A DNA stretch of 64,000 bases, from contig JBFLYH010000003.1 in NCBI GenBank assembly GCA_040756875.1, positions 352,001-416,000 of the forward strand. Reading direction: 5' to 3'. The translations under genes were made by a program, and so were the position numbers. This DNA comes from a candidate division FCPU426 bacterium (GTDB lineage: Bacteria > Oederibacteriota > JAAXVQ01 > JAUVAV01). Shown piece by piece: positions 23,372-62,700 of this stretch. Positions within the stretch are counted from its first letter, which is position 1. Each line of letters opens with the position of its first letter. Under the pieces are notes generated by a model. That model was not told the DNA's origin, ran no database searches, and saw only the letters and a list, made by a program, of their open reading frames with translations.

Positions 23372-23427
23372 GCTCTCAAAACGATTGTATTAAGTAATAC
23401 TTTACATTAATAAATATCTCATCCACG

Positions 23428-24441: not shown

Positions 24442-24580
24442 GATGCATTTGCGGGATTCAGAAAACAAGGATAACACCTCGCTTTTAAACCTTAAAATCG
24501 TATTATATAGTAATTAGACTCTCCGGGCGACCAGTAATTTCAACAAAATAAGGTGTCTTCGAGAAGTATTTAGGCGTGTG

Positions 24581-25744: not shown

Positions 25745-25870
25745 ATGTCAATTTGAAAAACATATTTTTTGTATTTAATAAAGTTATTATCAAAACCTCA
25801 TGTTCGTCATCAAGAATATCCTTATTATCATTGATTTTTAAGCATTTTATTAAAAGTTTTATACAGTTTT

Positions 25871-26655: not shown

Positions 26656-27612
26656 TTACCAGGACACCGCCAGGGAAAAGACGTGATTCAAACCCTCGCC
26701 GGGCATTCGCTCCGTCGCCAAAGCGTAGTCCAGCTGCAGCGTGACCCGCTCGCCGAGACGGAAGTTACCGCTGGCGCCGGCGGTCCAGCGCCCATTGTCC
26801 AAACCCGTGCGCACGGCCAAAGCCGGAAGCGCTTGATATTCGACGCCCGCGTGGTACCGGTAGTTCCTGACCGCGGCCGGAGCGTGAAGATACTCGGCGT
26901 CAGCGTCGCAGGAAGCCCGCAGCCCGGTGTCACCCAGCTGGTACATGACCCCGGCCCGAATAAGCCAGGGCACCCGGTCCTGATACCCGCCCGGCCAGTT
27001 GAGGGAACTGTACACGTCCTGCAACATCAAACCCCAACTCCAATCCGGATCCAGTTGGTGCCAAACCGCCAGGTCGAGGCCGAATCCACTGGCCGATGTG
27101 CCGTCCAAGGATTGCAGCAGAAGCTTGAGATTGCTGCCCACGCCCAACCCGGGCCCCAAGCCGGAAGCGAGCGACAGCAGGAGGGCGTTCTCTGAATCGG
27201 AAAACATGTGATCCGGCAGCGGCCGATTCTCTTCCCGGGCTTCCAGGTCGCTGCCAGCCGAAAAATTGATCCAGGTTCCCGCGTAGGCGTACGATCCGCC
27301 GGTGGCGTTGACGTCGGCATGGGTGAAGCCGAGGAAATTCCAGGCCCGCTCCCATCCCAAAACCGAGGTCTGTGCCAGCACCCGGTCGCCGGCCAGAAAC
27401 GGCAGTTTGCCCGGATTCCAATAGGCGGCCGAAGCATCATCCGCGGCCGCGGTCTGGGCACCACCCATTCCCACTCCCCTGGCGCCGGCGCCGGCCCGCA
27501 GGTACGGCGCTGCACCGCCGCCCTCGGCCCGAACCTGCGGGACCCAGGCCATGAGCAGGCATCCTGCCAGCAAAACCCCCGACAGGCGCGGCCACGCGGC
27601 AAGGTTTTTCAA
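26656..27612 (-). CDS. PorV/PorQ-like (FadL-superfamily) outer-membrane barrel
   Basis: Signal peptide, GAGARGVGMGGA...DDASAAYWNPG, GFGLDL, GVEY, LDYA, H near the C-terminus, terminal Trp; TTGA overlap with the upstream subtilase. Confidence 0.8.
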   Translation of the reverse strand: MKNLAAWPRLSGVLLAGCLLMAWVPQVRAEGGGAAPYLRAGAGARGVGMGGAQTAAADDASAAYWNPGKLPFLAGDRVLAQTSVLGWERAWNFLGFTHADVNATGGSYAYAGTWINFSAGSDLEAREENRPLPDHMFSDSENALLLSLASGLGPGLGVGSNLKLLLQSLDGTSASGFGLDLAVWHQLDPDWSWGLMLQDVYSSLNWPGGYQDRVPWLIRAGVMYQLGDTGLRASCDADAEYLHAPAAVRNYRYHAGVEYQALPALAVRTGLDNGRWTAGASGNFRLGERVTLQLDYALATERMPGEGLNHVFSLAVSW

Positions 27613-32607: not shown

Positions 32608-33594
32608 TTACATCTCCAGCCTCAGGGTCACCCAGTGGTCCCACCCTTCGATGCGGTCGGTTTGCGCCGCGTAATCCAGGCGCAAGGCGATGCGTCCCCA
32701 GCCGATGGAGGGTAGGCGCAAGCCGCCGCCGATTGCCCATGCGCCGTCCATCCAGCCGCCGCGCGCAAACAAAATCCGGTTGAAACCGTATTCCAGTCCG
32801 GCCCGCGTTTGGGGTACGCGCCGTTCGGAAAGCGTCTGCACCCCCTCAATGCTGACAAGCAGATCCTGGGCTTCCAGCCACGACCAGGCGTAGGCCACAC
32901 CCAGATGGATTACAGCGGGAAAACGGTCGCGGGCGCCGGTGGACCATTGCAAATCGGCATAGGCGTTCCGCAAAACCAGGGCCACGGTCAACCCGGAAAA
33001 CGGCAGCCAGCGTGCGCCTGCATCCAATCCCCAGCCCGAGGCTTGTTCCCGCTCCAGCAAATGATAAAACCCCTTGAGGCCCAGGCCTACTGACAATTGC
33101 CGGTCGAAAAAAGGATGCCCGTAAGCCAGCCCATAACTGCCTTCGATATCCGAAAATAAATAATCCGGATTCAGCGAGTCAATGCGCCGGGCTTCCAGGG
33201 CGTAAGAGCCGGCGAAGCGGAGAATGGTCAGTCCCAGGGCGCCGAGCGGCAGGGAGCCCGTGCTCCCGGCTCGTTCGTCGGTTGGAAACGCGAAAGCGTT
33301 CAGCGGCAGCGCGAAATGCACCTGCGAATAATCGCCGCCGGCCGGAAGGGCCGCATACGTGCCCGAACCCTCGAGACGCGTCATGGACGCGAGGCCGGCC
33401 GGATTCCAGAAGCCGGCCGCGCTGTCCTCGCAGACCGCGGTGTACGCGCCGCCCAATCCCAGGGCCCGCGCATCCGCCCCCAGTTTTAGGAAGGCTCCCG
33501 CCTGTCCGCCGCCCGGTTCCGCGCGCAGGCCCGCGGCCAGGCCCAGGCAGATCAGGCAGCAGACCGCGGTTCCCAACCGCCGCGTCCAGGTCAT
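32608..33594 (-). CDS. PorV/PorQ-like outer-membrane barrel
   Basis: GQAGAFLKLGADARALGLGGAYTA...WNPAGL, GWGLDAG, GLEY, LDYA, HWVTL; ATGA overlap with the upstream subtilase. Confidence 0.82.
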   Translation of the reverse strand: MTWTRRLGTAVCCLICLGLAAGLRAEPGGGQAGAFLKLGADARALGLGGAYTAVCEDSAAGFWNPAGLASMTRLEGSGTYAALPAGGDYSQVHFALPLNAFAFPTDERAGSTGSLPLGALGLTILRFAGSYALEARRIDSLNPDYLFSDIEGSYGLAYGHPFFDRQLSVGLGLKGFYHLLEREQASGWGLDAGARWLPFSGLTVALVLRNAYADLQWSTGARDRFPAVIHLGVAYAWSWLEAQDLLVSIEGVQTLSERRVPQTRAGLEYGFNRILFARGGWMDGAWAIGGGLRLPSIGWGRIALRLDYAAQTDRIEGWDHWVTLRLEM

Positions 33595-35198
33595 CGCAGC
33601 ACCGCCATGGCTTTGACCGGGCTGGAAGGCCCGCCGGGCGACGTCATCTGAAAGTAATAGATGCCATTGGCCACGGGCTCACCCCAGCCGTTGCGGCCTT
33701 CCCACAGGATGACATTCTTGCCGGCCAGCGTGGCAGCCGCAGCCAGCGAGCGGTGGAACACCAATTCCCGGCCGGCGTCGTAAATGCGCAAGTCCACGTC
33801 CCGCGGGCGGTCCAACAGAAAAACGATCCGGGTTGCGTCGTCCTGGCCGGGCCGGAAAGGATTGGGATAATTATACGCGGTCATGACCGGCCGTTCGACC
33901 GGCGGGTTTCCCAGGGCGGCCAGCAAGTCGATCCGTCCGGCGCCGGTCTGTTCATCCGGGCCGGCCGGCCCCAGATCCACGGCGGTCGCAGCCAACGCGT
34001 TCTCCACCTGATCGGCGCTCCATCCCGGCTGATGGCCCCACACCACGGCAGCCGCGCCGGAAACCATGGCTGCGGCCATGGACGTGCCGGCGGTCACGGC
34101 GTACTCGCCGGCTTCCGATCCGCCGACGAAATCAGAAATCCGGCTGTTTTCGCTCCAAAAGGTGCTGAGCATGCCCGTATCCTTGGAAAACAAGGTTCCG
34201 CCGGCCCCGCCCGGAGCCGCCATGTCCACCGTGGAACTGGAAGTCGAGTAGCTGGCCCGCTGGTCCCAGGGATCCGTGGCTGCGACCGAGACCACGTGGT
34301 TCAACCCGGCTGGATAAAATAGTTCCTCCTGGCCCGAATTGCCGGACGCGGCGACGATCAGGCAGCCGCGGCCGTAGGCGTCGTCCACGGCGTCCTGCAC
34401 GGCCTGCGGATAATCCTGCCCTGCGGCCGGACCTCCCAAGGACAGGTTGATGATGCGCGCGCCCATGTCCACGGCCCAGCGGATGCCGGCGGCGATGTCC
34501 GCGTCCGTCCCCTCTCCCTTGTTGTTCAAAACCTTGACCGGCATGATTTTTCCGAACCAGGCGCATCCCGCCAGGCCCAGGGCATTGTCCGCGCCGGCTG
34601 CGATCAACCCCGCTACGTGCGTGCCGTGCCCGTTGTCGTCCTGCCCGTTGGCGGGCGGAGTATACCCGGACTGGTTGACCAGCGAGATGCCTTGCACCAG
34701 GCGGTCCTTCAATTCGGGGTGTTTCAGGTCCACGCCGCTGTCCACGACTGCGATCACCAGATCGTCCCTGCCTTTGGCCAGGGACCACGCGTAATTGGCG
34801 TTGATCTTGGGCAGGTACCACTGTTGATATTGCCGCTGGTTGTGGTCCGGACGGTAGTAGGGATCATTGGGCGTGACTTCCACGGCCAGGGCGTGCCGCC
34901 AGTAATTGGGTTGCACCTGCAGCACGCCGGGATCCCGGCGAAGGGCCGCGGCGGCGCTGAACACCGAAGCGCCGGAGGACGGCGACTGCCGTCTCCAGCC
35001 CAAAGCGGCGAGCGGGTCAGCCGGCGAGGTCCCCGGAGGGGTCCGCCCTTTCACCAGCACGTCCTCGGGCTGGCGCTGGACTACCTGGGCCGGCTGGACC
35101 AGGACCGGTTCCGATGCCTGGGCGCTGCATACGCCAACCGCCAGACAGCAGGCCGCCAGCAAAACCCAGGTGCTTGTACGTCGTGAGTCAAATGTCAT
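33591..35198 (-). CDS. Secreted S8 subtilase with FlgD-Ig/T9SS-like CTD
   Basis: VVDSG, GHGTHVAG, GTSMAAA; CTD NYPNPF...IYDAGRE...WEGRNGWGEPVANGIY. Confidence 0.92.
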   Translation of the reverse strand: MTFDSRRTSTWVLLAACCLAVGVCSAQASEPVLVQPAQVVQRQPEDVLVKGRTPPGTSPADPLAALGWRRQSPSSGASVFSAAAALRRDPGVLQVQPNYWRHALAVEVTPNDPYYRPDHNQRQYQQWYLPKINANYAWSLAKGRDDLVIAVVDSGVDLKHPELKDRLVQGISLVNQSGYTPPANGQDDNGHGTHVAGLIAAGADNALGLAGCAWFGKIMPVKVLNNKGEGTDADIAAGIRWAVDMGARIINLSLGGPAAGQDYPQAVQDAVDDAYGRGCLIVAASGNSGQEELFYPAGLNHVVSVAATDPWDQRASYSTSSSTVDMAAPGGAGGTLFSKDTGMLSTFWSENSRISDFVGGSEAGEYAVTAGTSMAAAMVSGAAAVVWGHQPGWSADQVENALAATAVDLGPAGPDEQTGAGRIDLLAALGNPPVERPVMTAYNYPNPFRPGQDDATRIVFLLDRPRDVDLRIYDAGRELVFHRSLAAAATLAGKNVILWEGRNGWGEPVANGIYYFQMTSPGGPSSPVKAMAVLR

Positions 35199-44733: not shown

Positions 44734-47700
44734 TCAGGCAGCGCTATCAACTGCCCTACGTTGTCTAGGTTGTGGTGCTTCCCAGATTTGGTTATCTATT
44801 TTAATGACTGGGAATATCCGTTTAAAGCGAATTAAAAGATTTGGCTTTTCAAGTACAGCCATGGGTAACTGCCGGGAGAACTGACTGCCATCTGCCATTT
44901 GCAGGGTCACGTTTTTCTGGTTTGACGGCAGGCTAGATAAAATATCCAATACCGCTTCTCTGGCCACCGGGTCGTCTTTAACTTCATTTAATACTCCCAA
45001 TAACTCTTGCAGCAATAGCGAAACCTGAACCGAATCCCGTGAACGGTTCAGTGCCAAGACGATCTGTTCCAGCCAGGCGCTGCGGGCAATCGCCCGGGAG
45101 GCAGGCGTGGCAGCCATGGTCCGCAAACGGTATTGGAACGCAAACCCCGGCGCCAACACCGTCAAACCGGTCAGCACAAAACTCGCGGCCATATTCACTC
45201 CGGCGCCGTTAACCAGGGCCAGGCTGATTCCGGCCCAGGCGGCCAAACTCAAGCCGATGACCGCGGCCCTGCCCCAGAAATTGTTTTGAGGCCTGGGAAG
45301 CAGGAGCATGAGCTTGAGTCCGGCTGGCAGGCCGCGCATTTGAATAATAGCCCGCCCCAGTCCGCTTTCCACAAAGCGCAGTCTTAAACGCTGCCAAACC
45401 GTGGTTCCGGGCTGCGCCGTTACACCCAGGTTCTGGTCCTGGCGCACGGTGGCAATGATTTCCTGCAGCGGCTGCGCCTCGGCCGTTGTGCCTGCTGCTG
45501 TTTCGGCGTCTGCCGGCTCAGCGGCCCGTGGAGCCAGCACACCGCGGAACCCGGCCACGCTCAGACCGGCCAGGGCAAACACCGCACCCAAAGCCACGGG
45601 CACGGCTGCCGGCAGGGCGACGAAGAAACTCGCGGCCAACAACAATCCCGAAGTTAAAAAGACGCCACTCAATACAACCGCATCCCAACGCGGCCCGGTC
45701 CGTAAACGGGCAAACGCCATGGGGGCGGTCAAGGTGTCCAGCGTATGGGTTAAAAATTCCGCCAGACCCGCAACCAAGGCATAGCGGAACGTGCCTGTTG
45801 GCATGGACGCCATGTTGATCCCGAACACGCGCAGGAGGCGCTGCGCCGCGGCATGTGAAAATCCTTCATGCCAGGCAATCGGCCAGTCCGCTTCGCCCAA
45901 CACGGCGCCGGTCTGGGGGTCCACCATCTTCTCGATTTTCGGATCATAGGCTCCGACCGGTTCGCCCACGTGGCGCAGCAGGCCCGGGAATCCGTACTTG
46001 GCCCGCAACAACCGGAATGCGGTTGCCAGCTTGGCCGAAGGATAGAGCAACCCGAGCCCCAGGGACGGCAGCAGGGGCAGCCCCAGACCCAGGCTCAAAA
46101 TCCCGATCCAGACCGCGGCCACGACCAAGGTGTTCCGCAGGCTTAATGCCTGGTAATCGCCGTTTTTCCTCCCCAAGACCGCCTGGCGCACGATTCCGCG
46201 GCTCATGATCGTGTCCGCGATCATCTGCTCGATCATGCGGACCGTGCGGCTGGCGCTTTTTTGCGTCTCCGGAGAAATGATGAGCGCGTCCGTGGGCACG
46301 GGCATTCTCGACTGGGGTTCCGTGGATTTACGGTCTTTGGCTGTCAGGTCAAAATAAACCCGGATGTCCGTCCGTTTAACGTATTGCTCGGGCGTTTGCC
46401 CCACCACGATGACCCGGCCTTTTTGGGCTGAGTTTTGGACCAGCCGGCTGACCAGGGTATCCAGCAATTGCCGCTGATCCCTGAAGATTTTCGCGCCCAC
46501 GGTCAACTCCGAGGATTCCGTGGTTTCGCCCGCCAGTTCGTTGCGGTTAAAAGCCATGGTTTCCTTGGCCGCGCCTTTACGGTTGTAGTCGGCGGTCAGA
46601 CCTTCGGCCGTTAACCGGAACTTGGCCCGTTTGACAAATTCCTCGAAGCTGTCCGCCTTGCCGGCTGCGAGAAACTTCTCATACACCGAAACGATTCCCC
46701 GATAAACCAACCCGACATCGATGACCCGGTAACTGAGGCTCTGAGCCAGTTTCCAGGCAGCCTCGATCTTGCCCGTACCCGAGGGCCCACCCATGGTAAT
46801 GATCCAATCGACCGCCTTGATGACGTCCTGTTTGACCAGGGTATAGCCCGGACGGGTGGCGCTCTCATCGAGGAAATTAGGCAGGATTTTAATCTCAGCG
46901 CCGAACGCCATGGGATCAACCGGCGCGATTTTAATTTTAACGTCGAAATAGCCGTCGGTTATTTGCTCGATTTTTATGCGCCCGTCTGCGCCCTGGGTGA
47001 TGCTGACGTTGACCCCGGCGGCTTTTTGGCCGTCAACGACCTTGATGCGGTAGCCGTGCGCTTCCAAATAGGGTATCAGCTGATTGACCGCTTTCTCAAT
47101 CTGGTCCACATGAGGAATGACCAATAGGGTCCCTACGACGTCGTCCACGATTTTCTTGACGTTTCGTTCGTTGTATATGTCGGTGTCGCTGAAATCCGGC
47201 TTGGCTGGCATGGCCTTATTCCAATACCGCAGGAAATTCATGAGGATAGAGAAGGGTTCCTTGACTCGGCCCGGAGCGACCAGCATGTCCAAATCCACCT
47301 GGTCCGCAAAGCTGCGCAAGTCTTCGCGCAAGCGTTCCATTTCTTTTTCCCGTCTGGCGGGATCGATCAACCGCCGGAGGCGGGCCATGGCCGGACGAAG
47401 CTCGGGATGGCGGTCCAGATATTGATCGACCATCCCGCCGCCGTGCCGCTGTTCCCACAGGAGAGTGATTTCCCAGAACTTCCGCTCCGCATCAGGCAGG
47501 GCGTAGTGCCCCATTTGCCGCATCTCTTCAATGACTTGCCGTGCGTTCAGGAAAATGACCCCCAGATAATCGAAATCCATATCCTCGAGCGCTTCCTGGT
47601 TGTCGTGATACAACTGGCGCAAGGCGTCGATAGCCGCCAATTTGTCGTCGCTTTCGCTTGCCAGGCGCTGGGCCGTATTCACAAACCAGCGTTGGAAAAT

Positions 47701-50700
47701 TTGGTCGTTGCGTATATTGAAATTCAGCAGACTCCATTCCGGCGAAATGAATTCCTTGGCTTCCTGCGCTTGGCCGTTGGCTTCCTGTTCCAGGTTGACG
47801 GCAAAAACGATTTCGCCGCCCAAGGGGCGGGCGAAAGCCGCTAGCGCATCCGTGGCTGCTTTTTCCAGAACCCTAAACAAGTCCCGGCCCGGCATCTGGG
47901 AGCGGACTTCGCCCTGGCGGGTCGGCACTTGGGCCAGGGCCTTATCATAGGCTTCGGCGCCGGCCACGCCCATGGAAAGCTTGGGTACGTACAAATAACC
48001 CGCATGCAGTCCGATTTTGGATTCAACTTCAAAGGGCATGGCAGCCAGCGTGTCAGCCGAGGTGCCCGAAGGCTGCAGGATGCCGGCCACTTCCAGAGCA
48101 TGCTGCAGGTCTTTCTGGGCCGATATTTCATAAACAACGTGCACTTGCCGGCCTTCGGTAATCCCCACGGCGCCGTGCCCGAATTCCCTGACCGCGTTGC
48201 GCAACTGGCTGAGACGAATGTTGAAATCCCGCTCCGAGATGGTCCGGGCCTGGTTGTCGAGGTCGAAATACTGCAGGGTGACCACCCGGTAACGGCGGTT
48301 GAAGCTATAGAATAAATAGGATTGAACGTCCTGCAGCAACCGGCTGAATTCTTTGTCGTTTCTCAGCTTGGTCGCAATGGCAAACCGGGCGGAAGTGTTT
48401 TCCGGCCGGAAGAAGAAAATATTTCTGCCCAAATATCCTTGCAGAATTTGCAAGGTTTTTTCATAAATGAACTCCGCGATATCCTGGCCGTAAATATCCT
48501 TCAAATCGGAGAAAGAATCGATCTCCGCCACGGCCAGGGCCGCCGGTTCTCCGTCGGATAACAGTTTCTCCACCCGGCGCTGGCCGGAAACGCGCTGCGG
48601 AATTTTATACCTGTCCCGGACAATGGTATCCTTGCCCAAACCGCCGACCATACCCGCGGCCAGGATGAATTGTCCACCGGCTGGTTGCTGGTTCAAGAGG
48701 GCGTAGATCCCGATGGCGGCCAGGAGGATGATCATCGGGTTGCCGCGGACGAAATCAACCGCGCGCTGCAGATGCCGGCGCAGCACCGGCCAGGCGGTTT
48801 CCCGCAGGGCGGCCACGCGCAGGCGCAGTTTCTGGAACGCGCTCAAGAAGGCGGCTGCACCGGCCAGCAGCCCTACGCCCAGCAGGACGGCTCCAGCGCC
48901 AAACAGGGCCGCGGTCCCGGCGCCGAGAAAAACGGCGGTGTAGATGAGGTATCCCAGTCCAACGGCCAGGAACGAACCGCCGGCCAAGCCCATCACCAGC
49001 GATAAGGAAGCGGTGCCGCGCTCTCCCAAACGCGGGGTCCTGCCTTCGGGCTGGCTGGCCGTTTGCGCGACCGAGGCGATTTCAGCATCGCGTTTTTCTT
49101 TGGTCTGAAGCAACCGGTTCCAGAAATAAGCCAGCGTGGTCTCCAGCGGCCGGTCTTTGAAGAATTCTCCGCTGAGCGTGGTCAAAACATGTTCCTCGGC
49201 GCTGCGAAGCACGAAGAGGCGCTCAGCCTCGGTCAAACCGAATTGATCCATTACCGTGGACAGTTCCGGCAACACCTCGGAGTAGCGGTCCGCCAGCCAG
49301 GCAATGATCATGGCCCGGGTCAGCCGCAGCATGCGCTGAGACCGCCAAGGGGACCCCAGGGAATACAAGGCTTGCATTAAATCATTCACAAAAGCACCGT
49401 GCGGCCCGCGCCAGGCCAGACGCCGCTCCAGGAAATCCCGGATCTCGTCCGGCGTCCCGTCCAGCGGGCTGGCCACCGGCGCAGCCCGCGCCGGGCGGGC
49501 CTGGAATTCGTCGGCCCGCAGGATTCTGACCCGGGCCAGCAAGGCGCGGGTGGCGGCCATGGCATTGAGCGGCTGGTTCAAGGCGCGACGAACGGATACG
49601 CCCCACAGCGGCGAGCGAACGGAACCGACATTGAAGCCTGAATCCGCCACTAAAGGCAGGTCATTGTCGAAAATCGAGCCCACCGAATCACCGGCTAAAA
49701 ACAGCTCAGTGGTGTCAATACCCAGGTCCGCGGCCATATCTTCCGCGGCCCGGCGTTTGGTGACGTCCCACGGATAAATCCGCAGGTCCTTGCCTTCGAC
49801 ATACATTGCATACTGCCGCTGCAACCGGGGAAACTGCCGGGTGATGAACCGCGCCAATTCGAAGGCCTTGTCCCGGCTTCTGCAGCTGACGTTGAAGTAT
49901 CCCTGCCCCTCGGAAACTTTCTTGTCGGGATAGCTCGCCAGCAGCTGTTCAAGCAAGTTGATGTCGCCGGGTTGAAGCGTGCGCCGATAGGCCGCGTCTT
50001 CGACCGGCTGGCCGGACCGCACCTGCCATTTGGTCGCGCCGTTTTCCCCGTAGATCCGCAGGCGCTCCAAGTCCTGTTCCGTGGCGCCGTAGGCCTGCAA
50101 TTGCTTGATGGTCTTGGCCATGGAGGAGGCGGTCATGATCCGACCCGTGGCCAATCCCACATACTTGCCTTCTTGCAGGGCCTGGGCAATGTCTTTTTCC
50201 TCCATCGTCCCGGTCCAGTCTGTCAGCATGCCCTTGTAGGTCTGACCCAGCCTCTCCTCCCACATTTTTCTTTCGACTTCGGGAAGTAGCGCCAAAAGTT
50301 TGGAGGTAGGCAGCAATTCCGTGCGACCGTCGCGCTCGTCCACTGCCACGGGTGCGCCCCGCTGGGTAAGCAGCACGGCGGTCATGGCATCAAAGAAGAT
50401 GTTCAAAACCTGGGCCGGGCTCAAATTCAGGTCAGGACGGATTGGATCCAGCGCCGGCACGGCTTCCGCTTCCCGGGTTGGCTGTTGCCGCCTCAATTTG
50501 CCGAATAATTCCTGCACGCGGGCGTAGAAGGTCTTGTTTGCAAACGCGTAGAAATCCTCGAAGTATCCGGGCCGGTGGTCTTTGCGACCCATTTCCGGCG
50601 CATCCATGGCCATGAATTTCCTGAGCCACAGGGGAATACTGGCGTTGTTGACCGTGGCGTTGATCAGGATGATTTCCCTCTGCCCCGGCCGTTCCCGGAA

Positions 50701-53700
50701 GTTCTCGTAATTGCGCTGCAAGCTATCGAAGATCTTGTCCCGGCGGGTGGGCAGCGCGCGGCCGTCGGGAGTCCAGTATTGGACATCATAAACCACCTGC
50801 GTGGCCCCGGGTTTCAGTTCACGCAACCGGGCCAGCAGTTCGCGGTTGTTCCGGTCCCGCAGGGCTTCTTCGGCGTGGCTCGCGCGGCTCTTTTTGGACA
50901 GCTCCAGAACGTCCTGGCTGGGAAGCCCCGGATTCAGCACGGAGTTCAGCAGGACCGACAGGTTGGAAAATTGCTGGAAGCCGTCCGGATAGCGTTGGTT
51001 TTTAGAACCGTCCAGGACGACCACGTGCGGAGCTTCGGTCATCAAGCGGCGCAAAATTTGGGGCGTAATGTCGTCTTCCGGCGCCATGCGGGCGTCCGCA
51101 TCTTCGCGGTAGAACAAACGGTCCGCAATATAGGGCGGGTTGGTGTGGCTCATGCCCGAACGCGCGCGGGTCCGGATGAATTCGACCTGTTTCCCTTTCT
51201 GGGCAGCATACTCTTGGATATGCTGCTTCAGCGGCTGGGTGACGAACATGCCGTACGCCACGTTTTCGCAGATCAGGACAGGAGCCGTGGCGGCGTCGAT
51301 AATGCGTTCAAGGTAGCGGGCCACCTGCAGGCTTTCATACGCCAGAAAATACTGTTCCTGGGCCGATTCCTTGATTTGCTGCTCCAGGCGCGACAAGGCG
51401 TCCAGGCCGAGTTCATCCACCATGTCCGCCACTGCTTCGATGCCCCGGTCCCGGATGGCGGCCAACTGGCGGTTGCTGGCCAGCAGGCTGAGCAGGCGGG
51501 CGGCGTTCTGGCCGGTCCGCTGGATCATCCGGTTCATTTGGCCGATGAAAAGCTGCACTTCCGCAAAATCGGCAAATCCGCCCTTTCGCTGGTAGTTTTC
51601 GAGCACCTGCACGAAATGCACAAAGTATTGGGGCCGGTCCGCGATCAGCTGCACGATGACCGCCGCGTCATAATCTTTCAACCCCTTCAGCGCCGCATGG
51701 AGGCTTTCAAATTTATTAGCGGTCTTCAAATGTTCCTGATGCCGGAGCAACGCTTCGGTCAACTGCGGAACCACGGCCGCCAATTCCGGATGGGCCCGGA
51801 CCAGGGCCGCCACTTTATTCTCGACTTGTGTTTTCTTGTCGCCCGGCCCGACCACCATGCCGGCAGCGGCGAAAATCACCCCGCCTTCCGCCGGATGCTG
51901 GGCCAGGAGGGAGTAAATGCCTATGGCCGCCAGCAGTACGATCATGGGATTGCCGCGGATAAAATCAATTACACGTTTGGCCAGCCTGGCGAAGCCCGCC
52001 GGATTGACGACCTTGGCCAGCTTTGACAGCGTGGTGCGGGTGGGCAATCCGGTTATAACGGCCCCCATGCCTAGAATCAGCAGAATGCCGGCAGCGACCA
52101 GCCCGCCGGTCAGCAGGGTTGCGGTTCCGGTGGCGATGATGGCCGTCGTACCCGCCACGACCGCCGAGGCGCCGGTGAGCACGCCGGCCAGCGGCGCGGT
52201 AATGAATCCGCCCTGGCCGGGTTTGGCCTCCAGCTGGGTGGGAATGGGCATTCCCCGCTTTTCCATTTCGAGGCTCAAGGCATTGGCAAAATCCTGGTCC
52301 ACTGTCTGTCCCTGGGCTTTTTGCTCCAGGATTTGCCGCCAAGCAGCCAGCAGCGCCCCTTGGATGGCCCTTTCGATCTCCGGATTATCCGCGGACAGAT
52401 TGGGATCGATGGAATGAACGGAAATCTGAAGCCCGGTTTCGCCAAAACCGAGCGAAACTTTCAACATGGACCCAAAAGCATCCACCCCGAACTTCAGAAC
52501 CCGGTTTTCTTCGGCGTTGTCGCCGATTTGGCCGTACGCCGAGCGGACCGCGGGATGCAGGTTCTCGTGCACGAGATCATAAGCTAGCAATTCCGGATCA
52601 TTGAGATGCCCGGCTGGCACATAGGTCCGGCCATTTACCAGGAAAGCGCCGAGCTCCTGGCCCTCCAAAGTGACCGGTGCATGCAATTGCACTTCTCCCG
52701 GATTCAAAGCGGACAGCGTGCGGTCCAGGGAACGCCAGGTGTTGATCTCCCTGGGGTCAGCGGGTTCTTCCTGCCCCTGCAGCCTCGCCAGCTGCTTCTT
52801 CACCAATGCTTGAGCCCGGACCTTCGCGGCCCGGAATTTATCGATGTCTGCGGAAGTCTTTTCCAGGATCAGCGCCACATGACTCCCGAGCGGCGAGGTC
52901 ATGGTCATGTGGGAGGAGACCGCCCGGTCGCCCGCCTCCACCGGTACTTCCAGTTGCTGTTGCCGGCCCTCCAGGGCCAGCGAATAGGAGCGCGTGGCCG
53001 GGGCTTTCTTAATAAGCTCCACTTGCTCGGTATCAACGCGTATATTCGGCTGCGCGCCTTGGGCCCAGGCGGAAACATTCGGGGTCGAAACCGCCATGAA
53101 CCCGGCCGCGATCAGGGCAAACAGCATCAGGAAAAGCGAACGGGGCCTGAACCCGCGGGTGCGCGGCGCAGTTTCCGCCGCTTCCACTTCCTCCACCATA
53201 CGGCGCTGGGCGCCCGGCTCGGCGAACATCCCCTGCAGGCGGGTGACCGCCAACCCCATCTGCGTAACCAGGGCCGGCTGCCGCAGCGTGGGCTGATAGG
53301 CCGTGATCTTGCCCTGTTTGGCCATGCTGGCCACGCGCAGGTCCGAGAACAAGCGGCCCAGACCGCGCTTGGCCGCCTGCTTGGTCGGCATTTCGGAGAA
53401 GACTGCGGTCAGGACGACGTGGGCCTGGTTGCCTGATTGCGGGTCGTTGATCTCCTTTTCCAATTCCGACAGCACGCCGGGCAGCTTCCTATTCATCCGG
53501 CCCGGTTGGCGCAGCAGGTTCAGGCCGTTCAGGTCCAGAATCAGGTGGGGCAAGCCGATCATCTGGTCGCCGGCCGTATAACCGATGGCGTCGTTGACTA
53601 ATTTGAAGCGGTTATAATTGACCCCGTCCCGCGTGGCGATGACGTAGGAGGCCATGGTTTCATCGAGCGTCCGTTCCAGGACCGGGTCGGCCAGGACTTC

Positions 53701-56700
53701 CTCAAGCGGACGCTGTTGTTGTTGCGACCATTCCTCGGCCATGCGTTGCCGCAGGATCCCGCGGGCTTGCTCGACAAAGGGGCCGTAATACTGCCCTTCC
53801 AATTCCAGCAGGTAGGTGGTTTCCGGGGTGATGACGGCAATGTGCACTTTGTCCGGCCCGCTGTCCGGCGGCGCCCGGCTGACGTGCACTTCGGGCTGGA
53901 AATCGCCGCGCCCGGCCAGCACGGCCAAGCGCTGCGCCACCAGTTCGCGGAACCCCTCGGTGGAAAAGTGTTTCGGATAAATGGCGTCGTGCTTGGGTTT
54001 GTCGCCGCTCCGGAGGATCATGTTGTCCTCGTAGAGCAGTTGTTGCCGCAGCAGCTGGCGGCCGTGCGCGTCGCCCAGCACCGGGGCCTCGGCTTTCTTC
54101 TCTTTGGCCTGAATCGGCTTCGTCAGGTCGTCCACCACCACCTGGTTTTTGCCCGCATCCTTGGCCACGTGCAGAAAATCGCCAGCCAATTGATATAAAG
54201 CTTCGCTCCAGGCTTGCACCTCCGACCGGCTCAGCTCTCCGGCCGCCTGTTTCTCGACGTAGGCGAAGTCCACGCGGGAGGCTTTGGTGGCGCCGATGGA
54301 AAGCGTGGGCGTGAGGAAGTATCCCTCCTGCAGGTACCCGTATCCCTTCTGGTCAATGGGCGGTTTGAAATCTTCGGCCTCCCGGGGCCAAGCCATTTTC
54401 GTCAAATTAAGGTTTTCCAGGCGGGCGGTCTGCAACCCAGCTTGTTCGAGGCGTTTCTTGAAAATCTGTTCAAGCAAGCGGCCGTTGACCTGATCCGCCG
54501 GCACGGGCGCAAATCCCTGCAGTTCCCGCTGGAAACGGCCAGCCAGGTCGTTGCGTCCGACGCGCAGCAACAGCCGCACGCCGTACACTTCGTCGAAAGC
54601 CACCCGCGCCAATTTGGGATCGCCGTAATCCTCGTTGATTTTAGCCGCGATAGCCCGCAATTGCTGTTCTTCCTGGGGTTTCAGCCCCCGCAAATCATAG
54701 GCCATGAACTGGCGGTGCATGTTCAGCTGCACCCGGCTGCGGAACAGGCGCATGATCTCTTTGATTTCCTGGGGAGTGAAATTTTCGGGCATGAGATACA
54801 GGCCCTCGTCGCCTCCGTGCCGGATGGTCGTCACCCGGGTTTCAGCCAGCTTGGGCAACAGCTTAAAGACCTGACGGAAATGGAGCGTAAGCAGCGCGCC
54901 CAGCAGCTGCCGCCTCACTGCCTGCCGCTTCTTTTCCAGGATCAGCTTTACCGGCCTGGAATTCGCCGTCTCCTCAATGATGCCGAGCACGTCGTCCAGC
55001 AGGAAATTCGTTATGGATTTGCCGTAAATGAGGTTGTAGCCGGACAGCCCGTCGATGTCCGAAAATCCCAGCCAGGCGTCGCCGGCTTGCTCCAACATCT
55101 GCCGCCGGGCGTTTTCACCCTGGATCCGGTTGAGCATACGGTTCCGCTCGCGCGCCATGGACCACAACCGGCCGATGGCCGAGCGAACCACCCTGGACTT
55201 GCGGATAATGCTCTGCTGCGCGGTGCCGAGAACTTCGGCCAGGGTGAAATTGCCCGTGTCCAGCACCACAGCCTCCGGAATCGGGCGGAGGGGATCACGC
55301 GACCGGGTGCGGGCTGAGAGGTCCATGTTCTCGATTTCCTTCAACCCAGCGGCCAACTCCTCCTCGGTGCGCAACGGGCGCTTCAAGAGCCGTTCCGCGC
55401 GGTTCCGCAGATCGTTGTTCACCACGTAGAAGCGCATTTTGGCGTCCCGGTCGAACAGCTTGGTGCCCATGGTCTGCCCGACCGCCACTAGGTTTTCCCG
55501 TTTGGCCAGGGCGCGGAGATGGTCGTCCACCACTTTTTGGACCGCCGGAATCCGTCCCAGCCTGGAGGCCAGGGATTCGAGGCGCTGGAAATCCTCTCCG
55601 GCCGCGTTGACGGCGTTGGGCAGCACCTGGTCCGTCACTTCGCGCCGCCGCCCTGGAAAAGCGCCTTCGCGGAGGAAAACCCGCATGCGCTGTTCTCCCA
55701 AGGCGCGGTCGAAATAAACCGTGACATTCGCCTGCTGCAAACGGTCCATGACGATCTTGGTGAAGGTGGCGAAGGCTTGCTGCTCGGCGGGCGTTTCCGC
55801 GCGGAAAGCGTCCTCGGTCCAATTCCCCTTGTCGATCTCGTCCTTGACGATGAGCGCGAACGCCCGGTAATAAATAGCCGCATCCGCGTAGGTATAGCCA
55901 AAGTAGCGCGACAAGACCTCGCCGATTTCAGTTTTTCCCGTGGCATCCGGTCCGTCCACCGTGATGATAAATCGCGGTTTGAAGAAGGTCGCCACGCTCC
56001 ACAGCAGGGGCACCAGGCCCGAGCCGGCGAGCGTCACGGCGGCCGCGGGTGCGACCAGCCCGGTGGCAATGGCCCCCACGGCCAACAGGGTGGCTAGAAT
56101 GCCTATCACCCCCACGATCGCGCTCAGCACGCGCGTGGGCCAGAATATTTCCCGGGCCAGGGACTGTAAGAACGGCTGTGTGCCGAGGCTGTAGGCGGAC
56201 ACGGCTTCCAGGTCCGCCACGTTGCGGTGGTCAAGGCCCAGCACTGACTCCAGCAATTCATGCAGCAGGGCTTGCGGCAGCTGGCGGTGGGCCATGACAT
56301 TGACGAAGCCCACGGGCCCGGCCGGCGTTTCTTCCACCGTGAAAAAGGCCCCGATCTTGAGGGCCTCGGGAGAAACCGACGCCTTGGAAGTAATCTTGCG
56401 AATTTGCAGATCCGTGATGGCCCGGTCCTGGCCGTTGACCTTGACGGTCAAGCCCTGCCCGCTTTCCAGGGACTGGACCGCGGCCTGGGCTTGGTCGAGC
56501 GTGTTCTCGAAGACCGTGCCCCGCAGGCTGCGGCGCAGGCGATTGATTTCCTCGGACAGTACCTGGCGGGTATAGAGCCCGGCCCGGGTTTCGGCCTTGT
56601 GGCCGAAGGAGGCGAAAAAGGCGTTCAATTGCTCCTGATCCAGCAGATCGAACCCGCGCTGCACCAGCGTTCGCGCCAATTGCAGGGTGTTCGCGCCGGG

Positions 56701-59700
56701 AATTTGTTTGAAAAGACGGTCGCGGAGTTCCTTCTGCGAATTTAAAAACACCGCCAGCAGCGTCGACAGGGCTGATTGGGTTTCCTCGCCGTAGAATCCG
56801 CGCCGGTCCAGGGCCAGCGCGCGCACGCGCTGCTGCTCCTGCAGCAGAGACCGGGCCACCCGCGCCACCAGGAGGGCGTTTTCTTTCTGGCGTTGCTTCA
56901 ACGCCGGTGTTCCGCCGGGTTCGCGGTCAACGGCGCTGATCACGTCCGCAGTGTTGGCCACCACGTTCCGCAGGTGCACCTCGTCGTAATGGGTCGTTTG
57001 GCTTAACTTGGCCCTCAGGCTTTCAGGCGCCAGTTCCTGCTCCACCACAAACGCCAGGGCGTGGGCCTCGGCAATGCCCTGGCTGCGCAGAGCCGCCTCC
57101 ACCGCTTCATGCAGGATCGTGGATTTTTTCAAATCCCCCTCGAGTTGCCGCTCCGCGATGACCTGGAGTTTTCCGCCAGCCTGGCGGTGCACGGCCAGGG
57201 CGCCGGAGATCCGCTCGGTGGTCCGGACCTCGAAGTTTTCGGGCGAAAGCCCGCGCAGGTAAGCTTCCACGGCCGCGGCATCCTCCGCCTTGGCCAGGAA
57301 GGGACGCACCGCGTTGGCCGCCGCTTCGGCGCGTGAACGGATGTACTCGGCATATTCCGCCGGAGATTCGGGCTGGAGGTCGGCGGCGCGCGTTTCCACG
57401 GCCTCGAAGCCTTCGATTTCCACGGGCGTGGCGATGTCCTTGCTGGCGCGGGCCTGCCCGTTTTTAAGATCGATCACGCCCACGATCTGGGAAGGATCGA
57501 AGCGGGTCATGCCTTCCAGGGCGTGGCCCGGGAACAGGGCGACCTGCGTGAATCCCAGGGCGGCCAGGGCCTGGCGCATTCCGCGGATGCCGGCCAGGAA
57601 TTGGGCCTCCGCGCCCCGGAATCCCGGACGCTGATAGTGGGAGGAGCCGTTGTCCACGCACAATACGGTCTGGCCGTTGATCATCGCCACGCGCATGTAA
57701 CCGGCAAATTGCGCCTGGGCGATGTTGTCGGCATTAGGGTTGGAATAGGTGGCGTGCGGCACCCCGCCCCGGGAAACGATCTGGCCGCTGGCCGCGGCAT
57801 AGGTCAGGAAATCGCTCCAGCCCACGGTTCCCGTAGTGTCCCGGACCTGCTGCTTGAGGCTGTCCAAAGCTTTGACGTATTCCGGATTGCGGCGGGCGAA
57901 ATCCTCGAAATTCAAGGTCTGCACCAGCAGGCGTTTTTGTTCGGTCAGGTTGCCTTGCAGGGCCAGCACATCCGGATCATCGCTGTAGCGGTTGACCAGC
58001 GTCGCCATGAGCTGTTCCGCCTCATCCAACAACTCAATCAGACGGGTCCGCTGGTATTTCCCGCTTTGATACTGCTGGAGCGCCGTGTTGAACGCCTGGC
58101 GGACGCCGGCCATCAACTGCTTTTGTTCGTCTTCAACCACGCGGCCGGCCCTGCGCGGCCCGACCAAGGCCAGGGGGCGTGTCTGCGGCAGGGCGGCCAC
58201 CGCTTGTTCGTGGGCCGCCTGGGCCAAGCGGGCGAGGGAGGCGGTTTGGCCGCCTTGGGCCTGCCGCAAGGCCGCCAGTTCATCGGCCACGATGTTCAAT
58301 TCAGCCGCCAGGGCGGTCTGGGAAGCCAGGGAGCGGTCCGAGGCGACTTGTTCAAGCGGCACCTTCAGGCTGTCGGCCAGATTGCGCGCATACTGCATGC
58401 GATAAAGGGCGAGCGCCATCTGCTCCACTTCAGCCCAGTCGGCCGTATCGAAGAACCAGGCGATCTGGTCCAATGCCTGCTGCAGGTTTCCGCGGATCGC
58501 TTCACGCCGGGACTGGGCGGCGTTCGCCGCGTCCTGCAACTGTTTGAGCGCCGTCACATACCCTTGGGTTTTAGTGGCATTGCCGAGGAACCAGACGGCT
58601 TGTGATGTGTACTGGGAAAATATTTGCTGAAAACGCGGGTCATTCGCGAGTTTGTCCGCCAGGAATGGAAGGGGATAATCCGCAGGCAGGAAGCGGCTAA
58701 GCTCTTCCTGCGACGGAGGCGCTTTGTTGCCAAACAGCCGTATGACCTGCTGCGATGCAGTCTGGCGCAACAGGTCCTGCCCTATCCGGCGCAGGCTGTT
58801 GCGCACGGCATCCGCCTGATCGGCAAATCCCGTTTCCTGGAAATTGGAACGGAAGAAACGCCCGAAATCACGAAGCGCACCAATTGCAGCCTCGGGAGTC
58901 GGCACTTGGGTTTGCAGTTTGCGGTCGATCAATTTCGCCATGGTCCCGGGCTGCGAAGCCAGGGCTTTGTCCAGCGTGGCCTGCAGCAACTGCCGGGCTT
59001 GCGGCTGAAGGGCAACAGGCAGGTCTTTGAGCACGGCCGCTGCACGGGCGTCGAAGTTCAGCGCGAATTCGACGGCATAATTAGCCTCGGTGAACTTGGC
59101 CGCTTCGTCGGAGGCCACCCGTTCAACCATCAACGTCAAGGCCGGCGTCAAAGCCAGGCCCTCCTCGCCGTCGAAAGCCATCCTCACCAACTCGCGCACG
59201 CCGTCCGTGGTGCGAATCGGCGCGCGGGCGGTTTCATAGGCTGAAAATTCGGCCGGAACGACGTCTTGGGCGTAGGTCTTCAAGTCTTGGATATGCTTGG
59301 TCACGGCCGCATCCAGACTCAGGCCCTGCAGCGTCAGCTTGAAGGTTTCCAGCAGGTCGGCCCCTGAATAAAACCGGCTGTCCATGCCGGCCAGGGCCTG
59401 GGATAGTTGCGCCAGCAGTTTGACGCCGTCCTGGTGGGTTTTCTCCGTCGTCCGTCCGGGCACAAGGGATTCGAGTTGTCCGGCCGACAGTCCGCCGGTG
59501 TACGTCGCCAGGGTATCGATCGAAACCTCGGTCCAGCCCCGCGCGTTGAACCAGGTGCTCATGGTTTCACGTTCGCCGTCGGTTAAGGCAATTTCGCTCG
59601 CCGGCCCGACTGCGGCCAAGGGCAACTCCACCGTCTCCCCGAGAATGGCGCGCCGGTTGACATTGCCGATTTCCGCGGTGTAATCGGCAATGCCCAACTG

Positions 59701-62700
59701 GTAGCCGGCCAGGATTTTGGCGATCAGGCCGGCCCGGATTTCGCCGATGCGCGTCTGTTCCAAACCGGCGATGTGCCCGCTTTCGTGCGCCAGGCGGCGC
59801 AGCAGCTGCATCTTGCCGCGGTTGTTTTTCAGCTGGTCCAGGGCCTTGGCATTGAGAACCATGCGGTTGCCCTGCACCTCGGAAAACGCCTGGCCGTGTG
59901 CCAGTGCATCCATTTCACCCGATAGACGTACCTCGAACTCCTTGTCGCCGCTGGCCTTGAAGGCGGCCATGATTTCCGAGAGTTCGAACGCCGCATTCGG
60001 ATACTGTTGCAGGCGCTGCTGGAGTTCAAACCGCTCCTGCTGCTGGGCCGGCGTGGGTGCGGCGATGCGGTTCAAGAAATTCAACCGCCGGTTCGAAGCC
60101 CGGCGCTCCTGATCCAGCGTCCGCTGCGCCGCTTGCACGCGTTTCACCAACTGCGAAGTTTGCAAAATGACGCGTCCGTCGGGCCGCATCTGGAATCCCA
60201 ACAGTTTCAGGCCGTCGGTGACAATTTGGCGCTGCCCGTTGTCGGCCACCTGGCCCAGGGGCGTGGCGCGGTCCATGATTTGCTCCAGGGTCAGCGCTGA
60301 AGTCCCGGCCCCGGCCGGTCCCAGCAGGGCGTTGTCGGGTTTGCGGCTTATATTCAGGTTGATCACCGGAGCTTCGGCGACTTCCTCTTCCACCGGAGTC
60401 TCCGCGCTGCTGCCGGCCATGATTTCCTGGCTGGCGGCGGTCATGGGCAGTTCGGCGCCCTGCAGCAGATCGGCGTCCAATTGCTGGGCAAAATTCAGCA
60501 ATCCCTGGCGGATGGAAGCGATTTGAAGCTGGGCCGGGCGGAAAAATACGATCGGATTGAAACTGAAATTGGGGATCTGGACTTTCAGGTTGTTCTGCTT
60601 GGCCAACTGCCTCATGGCATCTCGCTGGCGGTCGCTGGTAAACTCCGGCAGCAGGCGTTCGGGGCTCAACACATCCTGTTCACCCAGCTCAAAACTACGG
60701 CGTCCCGCGCGGATGGCCTGGACCAACTGGGCCAAATGCGAACCCGCGCTTTTCAAATCCAGACTGTCCAGAGACGTTCCGGCCAAAACAGCCTCCGCCA
60801 GCTCCTCGGCCTCGTTGTAATCCCGCACCAGACGGTTCAGGTTGTCCGACGGCGTAACCTCGCCCAGCAGGGGTAGGCGGCCGTTCCGGAAGGCCATGCC
60901 TGCCAGCGCGAGGCGTTCGGCGCGGCCGGCAATGAAGGCTTGCAGGGTTTTGTCGTCTTTCGACAGATCCAGAACGTTTTGCAAATCCACTTCCAATTCC
61001 GTCCGGTTCACCTGGTTCTGCGCATAACCGTACTTATCCAGCGACCACAGCATGGCCCGCTCCACCAGGCGCTGCTCCGGCCTGAAATACCCGCTCATGC
61101 GGGCGGTGACAACGGACCAAAGAGTGGCCGCCGGCCTGAATAATCTTGCCAAGGCCGCAACAAGGGAGCGCGCCGCCGATACCGGCGTCAGTCCCCGCAA
61201 TCCCTGGGGCGCGCCCCAGGCAATGGCCAGCGTCCCCAGTGCCCGGGTGATTGGGTTGGTGACTTCCGCCACCTGCGCCGCAAGCCGGCTCAGGGCGAAG
61301 GCACCGGCGCGTGCAGGTTCCTCAGTGCCGAGGATCTGCGCGCGCTTCTGGGCGAACTCGTCGGCGCCTACGAATTGGAACTGGAAGTTGTTGCCGTAGA
61401 GCACTTCCCCGGACAGCTCCGTGGTGTAGGCCGTGGTGGCGTTGGGTCTTACGACCACGTACCACCCGGCCTCCTGATCGAACTGGAAGACAAAAACATT
61501 AGCCGCGGGATTGGATTGCTCGGGCCTGAAAACCAGGCTGACCTTGGCGTCGTCCTCGGGATAGTTCCCGCGCGCCTCGCGGAACGCCTGTTGCAGGGCA
61601 TCGCCGGCAAGCTTGTCTTCCAGCACCAATTTGCGCCCCAACTCGATCTCCCAAACCGTTTCGAGATAGCGTTTGAAGACGGGATTGTTGAAAAGGCTGC
61701 GGGGAGCGAAAATATTTTCATTGCGGGCCAGCAATTTCTCCAAGGGGGTGCGCTCATTGCGCAGCAGCGAAAAATAGGGGTTGGCGACGTCCGTACGCGT
61801 CAGGCGAGGTTTAACGGTCAGGAACGAGACTCCCTGGGTCCGCAGGACGTTTTCGACATGCGAGGCGTGAAAACCGCCCGTGATCAGCACGGCCAAGGAC
61901 GTCTGGTTCTTGCGCATGGCCTGCATCAGGTTTTCCACAAAAGCCTGCGAACGCTGATCAGCCACGCGGTAGAAATCCGCGGACAGGTCGAGGTATTCAA
62001 CCAGCTTGAGTACACCCGGGTCCAGATCCGGCTGCAGGGCGTACCGGTAACTGACGTTTTCCAGAAAATGCAGCATGGACTCCAGCGTGAAATCCTCGCG
62101 GTGGCCTCGGAAGTAGCGCAAATCCTCTTCGGTCGCGCTGATGTTGATGAGGTTCTCCATTATTTTCAGGACGTACAGCTGATGGTCCAACTGGCGTTGC
62201 TCGTCGCTGGTGTACAAGCGCTGCCGGACAGCCCGGTCCAAAGCCTCGGCTTCATGCAGCAGACGTTCGTAGTCGACCACCGCGTTCACGGGCAGCCGGT
62301 GCTCCAAGGCGTACAGGCGGATGACTTTGTACGGTTCCAGTTCCACTCCCAGCCGGTTGGCTTCAGCCAGCAGGAAATCGCAATACTTTTCGAGCGTCTG
62401 GTTTTCCTGGTCGAAATTCTCTCGTTCATGGTCCATTTTGGCCAAATCCGTGCTGTAAATCGGGCGTTTGAGTTGTTCGAGGGCAAAACGCAAATCCTGG
62501 CAGTAGCCCTGGCTTTCCTCGTTCAGGAATTTCATCAGGGTGTTCTGGTTATGATCATAGAGCGCCTGGGATTCAATGCCCTGCAATACCAATGGTTCCG
62601 CACCCGTGGCAGCCTGGTATTCCGCTCCGGTTATGCGTCCCCGCTGGAGGAAGTACTGTCCGACTTTGTCCTTGACCGGCGATAAGGGGATACGGGCAAG

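Follow-up and report, generated by a model that had tools for sequence, protein, structure and literature searches.

A stretch of 64,000 nucleotides from contig JBFLYH010000003.1 (positions 352,001 to 416,000; assembly GCA_040756875.1) of a candidate division FCPU426 bacterium, referred to below as the window, carries a single open reading frame (ORF) coding for a giant protein of 6,130 amino acids (aa). The giant contains two domains of cytidylate kinase fold (CMK1 and CMK2), two GGDEF-like domains, a RelA/SpoT-type synthetase-like domain and a probable HAD phosphatase domain, with predicted transmembrane (TM) segments among them (Table 1). Our preferred reading, to which we attach roughly even weight, is that this protein is a polytopic inner-membrane, cytoplasm-facing hub for nucleotide second messengers. 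An earlier note on this DNA, made from the sequence alone, had listed six elements (two Cmk-like domains, a GGDEF-like domain, a GGDEF fragment, a degenerate GGDEF domain and a HAD domain); all six lie where they were placed, within one minus-strand ORF, and matches to profiles or structures were found in these regions.

In the proposed arrangement, the signal sequence would place a head domain of ~500 aa outside the cell, and hairpin cassettes would thread the body of the protein through the membrane such that the large soluble modules end up cytoplasmic. Module A would comprise a Cmk-derived domain, a GGDEF domain and a domain X; module B would comprise a degenerate GGDEF domain, a helical bundle, a RelA/SpoT-type synthetase-like domain and a Cmk-derived domain; and a probable HAD phosphatase module would lie between the two, in this genus. 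The first GGDEF-like domain (GGDEF-1) and the RelA/SpoT-like domain, whose catalytic signatures are kept across the family, are the likely catalysts, of nucleotidyl cyclisation and pyrophosphate transfer, and the Cmk-derived domains and the second GGDEF-like domain (GGDEF-2) are probably nucleotide-binding regulatory or scaffolding units. Judged by motif conservation, two of the domains appear to be catalytic, and the other three resemble binders of a non-canonical kind. What the data show are folds, motifs, a paralogous family and modules that are conserved and recur; to these the proposal adds a topology predicted under the positive-inside rule and putative catalysis and products.

The two Cmk-fold domains are recognised by Pfam, by profile comparison and by their models. 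CMK1 matches Pfam Cytidylate_kin (PF02224) with E 1.4e-20 and 74.4 bits, and CMK2 matches it with 26.1 bits, or 31.6 bits when scanned alone, at a cut-off of 26 bits. Profiles of the two domains, that of CMK1 built from eight family members, match solved Cmk structures with E 5.5e-25 and 7.2e-12, respectively. An AlphaFold model of module A (aa 2380–3330; pLDDT 82.1, pTM 0.71) superposes CMK1 on E. coli Cmk 2cmk with a VIA Z of 22.2 and 218 of the 221 residues of 2cmk aligned; the CMK2 model reaches Z 16.4 with 7l4a and Z 16.0 with 4die_D. A comparison by hhalign (97%, E 8.7e-11) shows that the two copies are homologues.

Neither copy retains the canonical Cmk active-site motifs. The Cmk P-loop has the consensus GPxGxGK[GS][ST], canonically GxxGxGK followed by S/T within two residues, and GRD is a motif of the nucleoside monophosphate site with a role in CMP binding. 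Neither CMK1 nor CMK2 has this canonical P-loop. The P-loop Lys of CMK1 is present in all 11 aligned rows, with S/T after it in two and with Glu/Asp (9/11) or Gln (2/11) at +2, and GK is found in three of seven CMK2 rows. As had been observed earlier from the sequence, GQT stands opposite GRD in the HMM alignments of both copies; GRD occurs in 0/11 CMK1 and 0/6 CMK2 rows, and VGQ in 6/6 CMK2 rows. The equivalog cut-off of NCBIfam TIGR00017 (135.55 bits) is failed by both domains (69.6 and 25.1 bits), and a housekeeping Cmk (245.5 bits) is encoded separately in the same genome. The earlier designation of the domains as enzymes is too strong for the Cmk copies, as it is for GGDEF-2, since canonical active-site motifs are not kept in the family. 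The suggested phylogeny against housekeeping Cmks was run as a quick IQ-TREE of 55 rows, with one in three eligible ordinary Cmks and with CMK2 rows shorter than 150 aa dropped. CMK1 (eight rows, support 97) and CMK2 (five rows, support 87) each form a group, and the 42 ordinary Cmks exclude both groups (support 92), with long-branch attraction as a caveat. The Cmks of the lineage itself are placed within the ordinary set (support 96).

GGDEF-1, previously placed at 54130–55080, is confirmed as a GGDEF fold by its model, which matches GGDEF domains with Z 14–17.1 (for example 3i5c_A, root-mean-square deviation 1.9 over 146 residues), and by hhalign with a set of 12 canonical GGDEF domains that this genome encodes (84%, E 7.3e-6, from DxD to GGDEG); against Pfam it gives no match at E<=5. 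Motif counts for module A rest on 15 aligned rows, down to ~26% identity. In 13 of these DxD and GDE are kept, in 13 the helix-alpha1 Asn, and the K..[KR]N at the C-terminus is likewise kept in 13/15 rows, at ~30% overall identity. GGDEF-2, the degenerate domain earlier assigned to 47800–48560, is likewise supported as a fold by its model (Z 16–18.5; 154 of 161 residues of 4iob aligned). Its hhalign match to canonical GGDEF is weak (5.5%, E 0.007), and PF00990 scores it at 15.9 and 12.4 bits, below the gathering score of 23.8; this Pfam model has 15 matches in the genome, none of them within the giant ORF. The beta1 Asp (D59) of GGDEF-2 is invariant, and the GGDEF signature is lost in all eight rows. 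According to DSSP, both copies carry an insert of helix-hairpin-helix shape at the same site, between beta4 and the 'SxG' strand (beta5), and this shared feature points to the two being paralogues that belong to a single derived type of GGDEF domain. A complex prediction of GGDEF-1 with GGDEF-2 scored 0.00, a value with no bearing on whether the two bind.

The third domain of module A, domain X, accounts for the proposed GGDEF fragment at ~53560–53610. The segment (nt 53533–53616) is a conserved helix-alpha1 motif, FKxxNDxxGYxAGDxxI, and matches GGDEF by hhalign (87%, E 4.3e-6), but the match spans just 28 columns and lies inside a domain of ~300 aa. Neither of the two 50-entry VIA lists contains a match over model residues 640–940, which is not grounds for a novel fold; the domain X profile finds nothing better than E 0.09–1.8 in the PDB, and hhalign against module B gives 0.4%.

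Between GGDEF-2 and CMK2 lies the RelA/SpoT-like domain, preceded by a helical bundle and absent from the earlier note. When 48,161 chains were searched independently of Foldseek, the matches included five alarmone synthetases (5dec_A, 6ewz_A, 8acu_B, 8vx3_A and 6fgk_A, comprising SAS1, RelP, B. subtilis Rel, an exported Streptomyces synthetase and SAS2) with Z 10.9–11.8, which is the moderate range by the tool's own note, and 155–173 residues aligned; the exported synthetase, 8vx3_A, scored Z 11.0. The lineage's own Rel profile aligns with module B by hhalign (52%, E 1.5e-4) and is in register at GRxKxxxS and DxxG, and nine of the domain's 30 nearest ESM clusters came from a set with 12% RelA_SpoT members. 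PF04607 (cut-off 27 bits) gave no match on this piece at E<=5, nor in the genome search at E<=0.01. Synthetases are marked by the motifs RxKxxxS (Syn1), DxxGxR (Syn2), Y..H (Syn3) and ExQxRT (Syn4). Here R/K/S of Syn1, D of Syn2, Y of Syn3 and E of Syn4 are present in 8/8 rows, and the rows of two relatives read GEVQIFT at Syn4. A separate housekeeping Rel is encoded in the same genome.

The region 49561–50241 is a probable HAD-IIB-like phosphatase domain. HAD-IIB proteins follow the consensus DxDx[TV]; S/T; K; and GDxxxD / DD, and motifs I–IV can be read by eye as DWTGT, LATG(R), K and GDS....DND; apart from GR they are conserved in 2/2 sequences, and Asp+2 is Thr. ESM features give 0.94 to Hydrolase_3 clusters. 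By hhalign against 12 canonical Hydrolase_3 proteins from the wider phylum the piece reaches 25% (E 7.8e-4), over motifs III–IV only; canonical Hydrolase_3 was not found in the 13 relatives at E<=1e-15. A phmmer search of solved structures returned no HAD protein, its sole match being XRCC4 (E 1.9).

The membrane topology was read from a Kyte-Doolittle (KD) hydropathy scan and from Lys/Arg (K/R) counts under the positive-inside rule. Every hairpin and cassette has 2–6 K/R in its outer flanks and none in its inner turns, and under that rule this pattern assigns aa 3349 to ~3640 to the outside and the three modules A, HAD and B to the cytoplasmic side. It is therefore most likely that the three modules face the cytoplasm between hairpin cassettes. 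The loop domain with HExxH (aa 3349–3640) is absent from P0004, the giant of a same-genus relative. The recurring cassette consists of two hydrophobic helices, a K/R-rich loop and the motif DF[IV]RGNPMI..LLAAIGIY.LL.Q.PA.GG..AAGMV, and by eye is also found in the homologues P0003–P0005. Several short HExxH/HE modules (HESGH, LHEAVEA, LHELLES, HENLH) occur, at aa ~1095, ~1960, ~2290 and ~3525, the last of these positions falling in the loop predicted to lie outside; one of the modules has a weak Peptidase_M10 match (E 0.018). The head domain has a weak ChaN/Tiki-like match in Pfam (E 0.18).

Table 1. Features of the giant ORF, from N- to C-terminus, and of the ORF that follows it.
Feature	Position (nt)	Strand	Residues (aa)	Basis or remark
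Giant ORF	44734..63126	-		single open frame, 6,130 aa
Signal peptide or signal anchor, ending AFA / FE	62974..63030	-	33-51	KD 1.85; 4 K/R before
Head domain (~500 aa)	61447..62973	-		29% identity, E 4e-46 to 2,236-aa neighbour; starts 10 ORFs of the genome
TM hairpin before CMK1	55984..56130	-	2333-2381	KD 2.58
CMK1, Cmk-fold; P-loop Lys kept, GQT for GRD	55186..55980	-	2388-2638	Pfam, profile, model
GGDEF-like 1; DxD and GGDEG kept; inserts of ~45 and ~125 aa	54130..55140	-		model, hhalign, alignment
Domain X (~300 aa), with GGDEF alpha1-like motif	53167..54072	-		profile, hhalign
Single TM	53083..53139	-	3330-3348	K/R 4 before, 1 after
Predicted extracytoplasmic loop domain with HExxH	52207..53082	-	3349-3640	sequence, inferred topology
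TM cassette 1 (TM, K/R-rich loop, 'DFIRGNPMI...' hairpin)	51835..52200	-	~3643-3764	
Probable HAD-IIB-like domain (DWTGT ... ATGR ... K ... GDS..DND)	49561..50241	-		Hydrolase_3 sub-threshold, hhalign, ESM
TM cassette 2	48619..49011	-	~4706-4836	61% identical to cassette 1 over 57 aa
GGDEF-like 2; GGDEF fold, degenerate signature, ~95-aa insert	47791..48612	-		model, alignment; hhalign weak
Helical bundle linker	47299..47742	-	5129-5276	DSSP of module B model
RelA/SpoT-type synthetase-like domain	46819..47286	-	~5281-5436	fold, hhalign, alignment
CMK2, Cmk-fold; degenerate P-loop, VGQ for GRD	46189..46812	-	5439-5646	Pfam, profile, model
C-terminal membrane region	45133..46137	-		hairpins 5664-5706, 5952-5998; TM 5828-5850; kept in P0003-P0005
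Downstream ORF, 2,236 aa	37901..44611	-		same head domain, then three TMs

Modules A and B are spread over much of the order to which the bacterium belongs. A search of 1.84 billion representatives returned 1,827 proteins at E<=0.001, 31 at E<=1e-10 and eight at E<=1e-30; among the best 150 of the 1,827, 13 (the window's own included) match beyond the Cmk part, and all of these are 1,415–6,244 aa long. At E<=1e-10, 12 of 15 genomes from the order have module A, in every case within open frames of 1,660–11,927 aa, and nine of 15 have module B; the giant ORFs in which the modules recur are 1,660–12,659 aa long. Relatives of the giant itself include open frames of 5,843, 5,753 and 3,848 aa and others. 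The order in which the earlier note listed its elements is correct as far as it goes but omits the RelA/SpoT-like domain between GGDEF-2 and CMK2. The mirrored CMK-GGDEF ... GGDEF-CMK arrangement that it described is accurate for this protein, although it passes over that domain and the third domain of module A and is not fixed. Module A is followed by module B in one ORF in five cases besides the giant studied (G001, G004, G006, contig 8 of G014 and contig 13 of G007), but the modules reside in different giants in G011, and module A is found without B in G003, in contig 2 of G014 and in 1,660-aa forms. The A-to-B stretch with the HAD domain is full-length in the same genus only. A 5,713-aa homologue, P0005, is 39% identical in module A and bears the public name '(d)CMP kinase [bacterium]'; at the place of the HAD domain and module B, nitrilase-, kinase-, methyltransferase- and nucleotidyltransferase-like motifs can be read in it by eye.

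The giant also belongs to a paralogous family. Its head domain starts ten ORFs of the genome, of 12,551, 12,450, 10,037, 8,807, 6,158, 4,323, 2,613, 2,248, 1,271 and 1,136 aa, located on contigs C1, C2, C3, C6 and C7 and summing to ~61,600 aa, or ~5.7% of the 3.22-Mb genome. The 12,450-aa paralog (L091/L092, C2:59900-98000, minus strand) contains NTP_transferase (E 3.4e-45) and DnaJ (E 2.7e-18) domains together with ManC beta-helix, CheR SAM-binding, HD/HD_5 and glycogen-phosphorylase-like pieces, which indicates that stringing cytoplasm-type enzymes along a giant is a habit of the family. On contig C2, the 12,450-aa and 2,613-aa ORFs stand in tandem, like the 6,130/2,236-aa pair in the window.

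Several observations weigh against the hub reading. The stretch aa 52–2326 has no convincing TM segment (best KD 1.4, at 655–673), simple counting from the signal sequence and the two-helix hairpin at aa 2333–2381 puts module A outside, and the charge bias at this first hairpin is weak, with two K/R on each side. At the position which we take to be the guanine-recognising Asp of GGDEF-1, 10 of 15 rows have Asn and three Asp, with Arg or Cys in two degenerate rows; in the giant's RelA/SpoT-like domain the Syn2 Arg is replaced by Leu and the Syn4 Gln/Arg/Thr by Lys/Leu/Pro. The Pfam GGDEF and RelA_SpoT models stay below their thresholds on the giant, and the HAD piece scores 16.4 bits with Hydrolase_3 (PF08282; cut-off 20.9), such that the HAD domain formerly placed at 49560–50240, with its readable motifs and ESM similarity, is probable only. 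The sequencing runs listed as carrying this DNA include no RNA run. The simple count would agree with modules exposed to the periplasm or the exterior, where they would act on extracellular nucleotides like the exported synthetase SaEAS, and an exported synthetase, 8vx3_A, is among the five structure matches of the RelA/SpoT-like domain. The available text of PMC12691689 describes exported alarmone synthetases that work outside cells, and RelA/SpoT-family enzymes as secreted toxins. The existence of such synthetases means that nucleotide dependence alone cannot imply a cytoplasmic location, and the earlier argument that ATP/GTP-dependent domains need a cytoplasm does not strictly hold. An outside location would, however, conflict with the positive-inside rule, as ~40 K/R in the cassette flanks would then be external and hardly any internal. 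In the homologues P0005 and P0002 the head is directly followed by clear TMs, an extra cluster that restores the inside location of the body, and DnaJ, a cytoplasm marker, in a paralogous giant argues for a cytoplasmic body as well. We regard extracytoplasmic enzymes as very improbable, and the description of the protein as an exported giant is supported, through the signal sequence, for the N-terminal head only.

It is also conceivable, if rather unlikely, that the giant is a pseudoenzyme scaffold, with all nucleotide modules dead and serving as spacers or nucleotide sensors at the cytoplasmic side of an envelope protein and with the real work done by the head, the HExxH regions and the cassettes. 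The sparse S/T after the P-loop Lys and missing GRD of CMK1, the GK of CMK2 in a minority of rows, the degenerate signature of GGDEF-2, the partly kept Syn2 and Syn4 and the failed thresholds of TIGR00017, GGDEF and RelA_SpoT would all agree with it. In contrast, the DxD, GDE and K..[KR]N of GGDEF-1 persist in 13/15 rows at ~30% identity, 8/8 rows of the RelA/SpoT-like domain have identical metal- and phosphate-binding residues, and active-site residues kept at low overall identity are the pattern expected from purifying selection on an active site. Delivery was the other option raised in the earlier note: the giant would be exported and cut, for example at the HExxH regions, and its nucleotide modules delivered into another cell. 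MARTX-type proteins, which are multi-effector toxins, would be the model. A signal sequence, several HExxH motifs with the weak Peptidase_M10 match and modules swapped between homologues (the inserts of P0005 differ, by eye) could be accommodated, and precedents are available in the secreted RelA/SpoT-family toxins (PMC12691689) and in the Omnitrophota giants that the available text of bioRxiv 10.1101/2023.11.21.568195 proposes to act on prey. Against delivery, the hairpins between modules and their charge bias fit a static topology, Pfam and NCBIfam show no secretion-system or translocation domain in the giant or its 2,236-aa neighbour, modules A and B are spread over much of the order, a paralog carries DnaJ, and two of the four nucleotide domains look inactive. 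Delivered effectors thus appear improbable, and the K/R flanks and the DnaJ paralog favour the cytoplasm-facing hub. A bolder version of this hub, which we offer as a long shot, is a membrane-embedded messenger factory in which Cmk-derived domains with a rebuilt cytosine/NMP site would select or feed nucleotides to a GGDEF-type cyclase of altered base recognition and a RelA/SpoT-type pyrophosphokinase; the resulting non-canonical messengers would be coupled by the cassettes to cell-surface events or passed outward, as one part of a ten-gene giant-protein system.

The genomic setting of the giant is that of an ordinary chromosome. The genome comprises 3.22 Mb in seven contigs and is 100% complete, and the genes around the giants are an ordinary chromosomal set (ClpB, Gmk, CoaBC, YicC, PriA and two subtilases). 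The nearest named relative of the neighbouring ClpB is from candidate division FCPU426 (77% identity), and the only public sequencing run with this DNA, a groundwater metagenome, may be its source. The 2,236-aa ORF is the next one after the giant and has the same direction. Downstream of both, on the minus strand (26656-29258 and 33591-35198), are the two subtilases, with FlgD_ig-like C-terminal domains, and a PorV-like protein (weak, E 4e-4). Window positions 22000–26000 have a G+C of 0.49–0.52 versus ~0.62 elsewhere; this stretch spans the ORFs 21834-23216 and 23428-24477, which lack a Pfam family, and a PD40 beta-propeller protein. PADLOC on seven pieces yielded nothing but DpdD (E 0.046), and a related-locus search of the genome contigs gave no confirmed relative.

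The modules describe two recurrent and previously undescribed architectures, Cmk*-GGDEF-X and GGDEF*-helical-RSH-Cmk*, which between them join three nucleotide-messenger enzyme families in one chain. The literature search found no paper joining cytidylate kinase, GGDEF and a giant protein, and PMC11573180 does not mention cytidylate or GGDEF. The public name '(d)CMP kinase' is misleading for such proteins. With modules of 850–950 aa that fold confidently in silico, the family is of tractable size, and its ten head-bearing ORFs (~61,600 aa) are a major investment for the organism, whatever their role.

Compared with known systems, the domains show both likenesses and differences. Like housekeeping Cmk (PF02224/TIGR00017; 2cmk, 2h92, 4die), CMK1 and CMK2 have the whole Cmk fold with its insert, and their alignment to it extends to the YR motif and to the lid region at the C-terminal end. 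Unlike it, they sit twice inside a 6,130-aa membrane protein, have GQ[TN] or VGQ for GRD and a P-loop of the form GxDxxGK[TQRK]E, miss the equivalog cut-off and fall outside the ordinary Cmks in the quick tree. The GGDEF-like domains share the fold of GGDEF diguanylate cyclases and of their relatives with a degenerate, regulatory role (PleD, WspR, DosC, YfiN), and GGDEF-1 also shares DxD, GDE, the helix-alpha1 Asn and the C-terminal AKxxGKN. They differ by the beta4-beta5 inserts of ~95–125 aa in both copies; GGDEF-1 further has the signature GGDEG, whose last position varies among relatives, no RxxD site by eye and mostly Asn where we presume the guanine Asp, GGDEF-2 has no signature, and both copies are below the Pfam threshold. 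With small alarmone synthetases and RSH proteins (5dec, 6ewz, 6fgk, 8acu, 8vx3; available text of PMC12691689), the RelA/SpoT-like domain has in common the synthetase fold, RxKxxxS, the Mg-binding Asp and the Tyr and Glu of Syn3/Syn4. It stands apart as an internal domain between a degenerate GGDEF and a Cmk-like domain, with the Syn2 Arg and the Syn4 Gln/Arg/Thr replaced in most rows and with no PF04607 match.

The closest parallel for the protein as a whole is provided by the Omnitrophota giants ('Archaeovorins'), which in the available text of two preprints (10.1101/2023.11.21.568195; 10.64898/2026.06.07.730766) combine numerous TM helices with divergent enzyme domains, GGDEF and HAD among them. 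In both systems the ORFs are very long and have a signal peptide, numerous TM helices or both, divergent cytoplasm-type enzyme domains are arrayed along the chain (GGDEF, HAD, NUDIX and AAA among the common ones of Archaeovorins), the same doubt exists over the side each domain faces, and several giants are found per small genome. The family described here belongs to a different phylum, is smaller, at 1.1–12.6 thousand aa (6,130 for the giant) versus more than 30 thousand, and is defined by a shared N-terminal head; Pfam finds no SecA_DEAD or TSP3 in the 6,130-aa ORF, and Cmk-derived and RelA/SpoT-like domains are not in the main text of either preprint. The likeness is one of architecture, not of homology, and it extends a theme of giant multi-enzyme membrane proteins, so far seen in Omnitrophota, to a second uncultured phylum.

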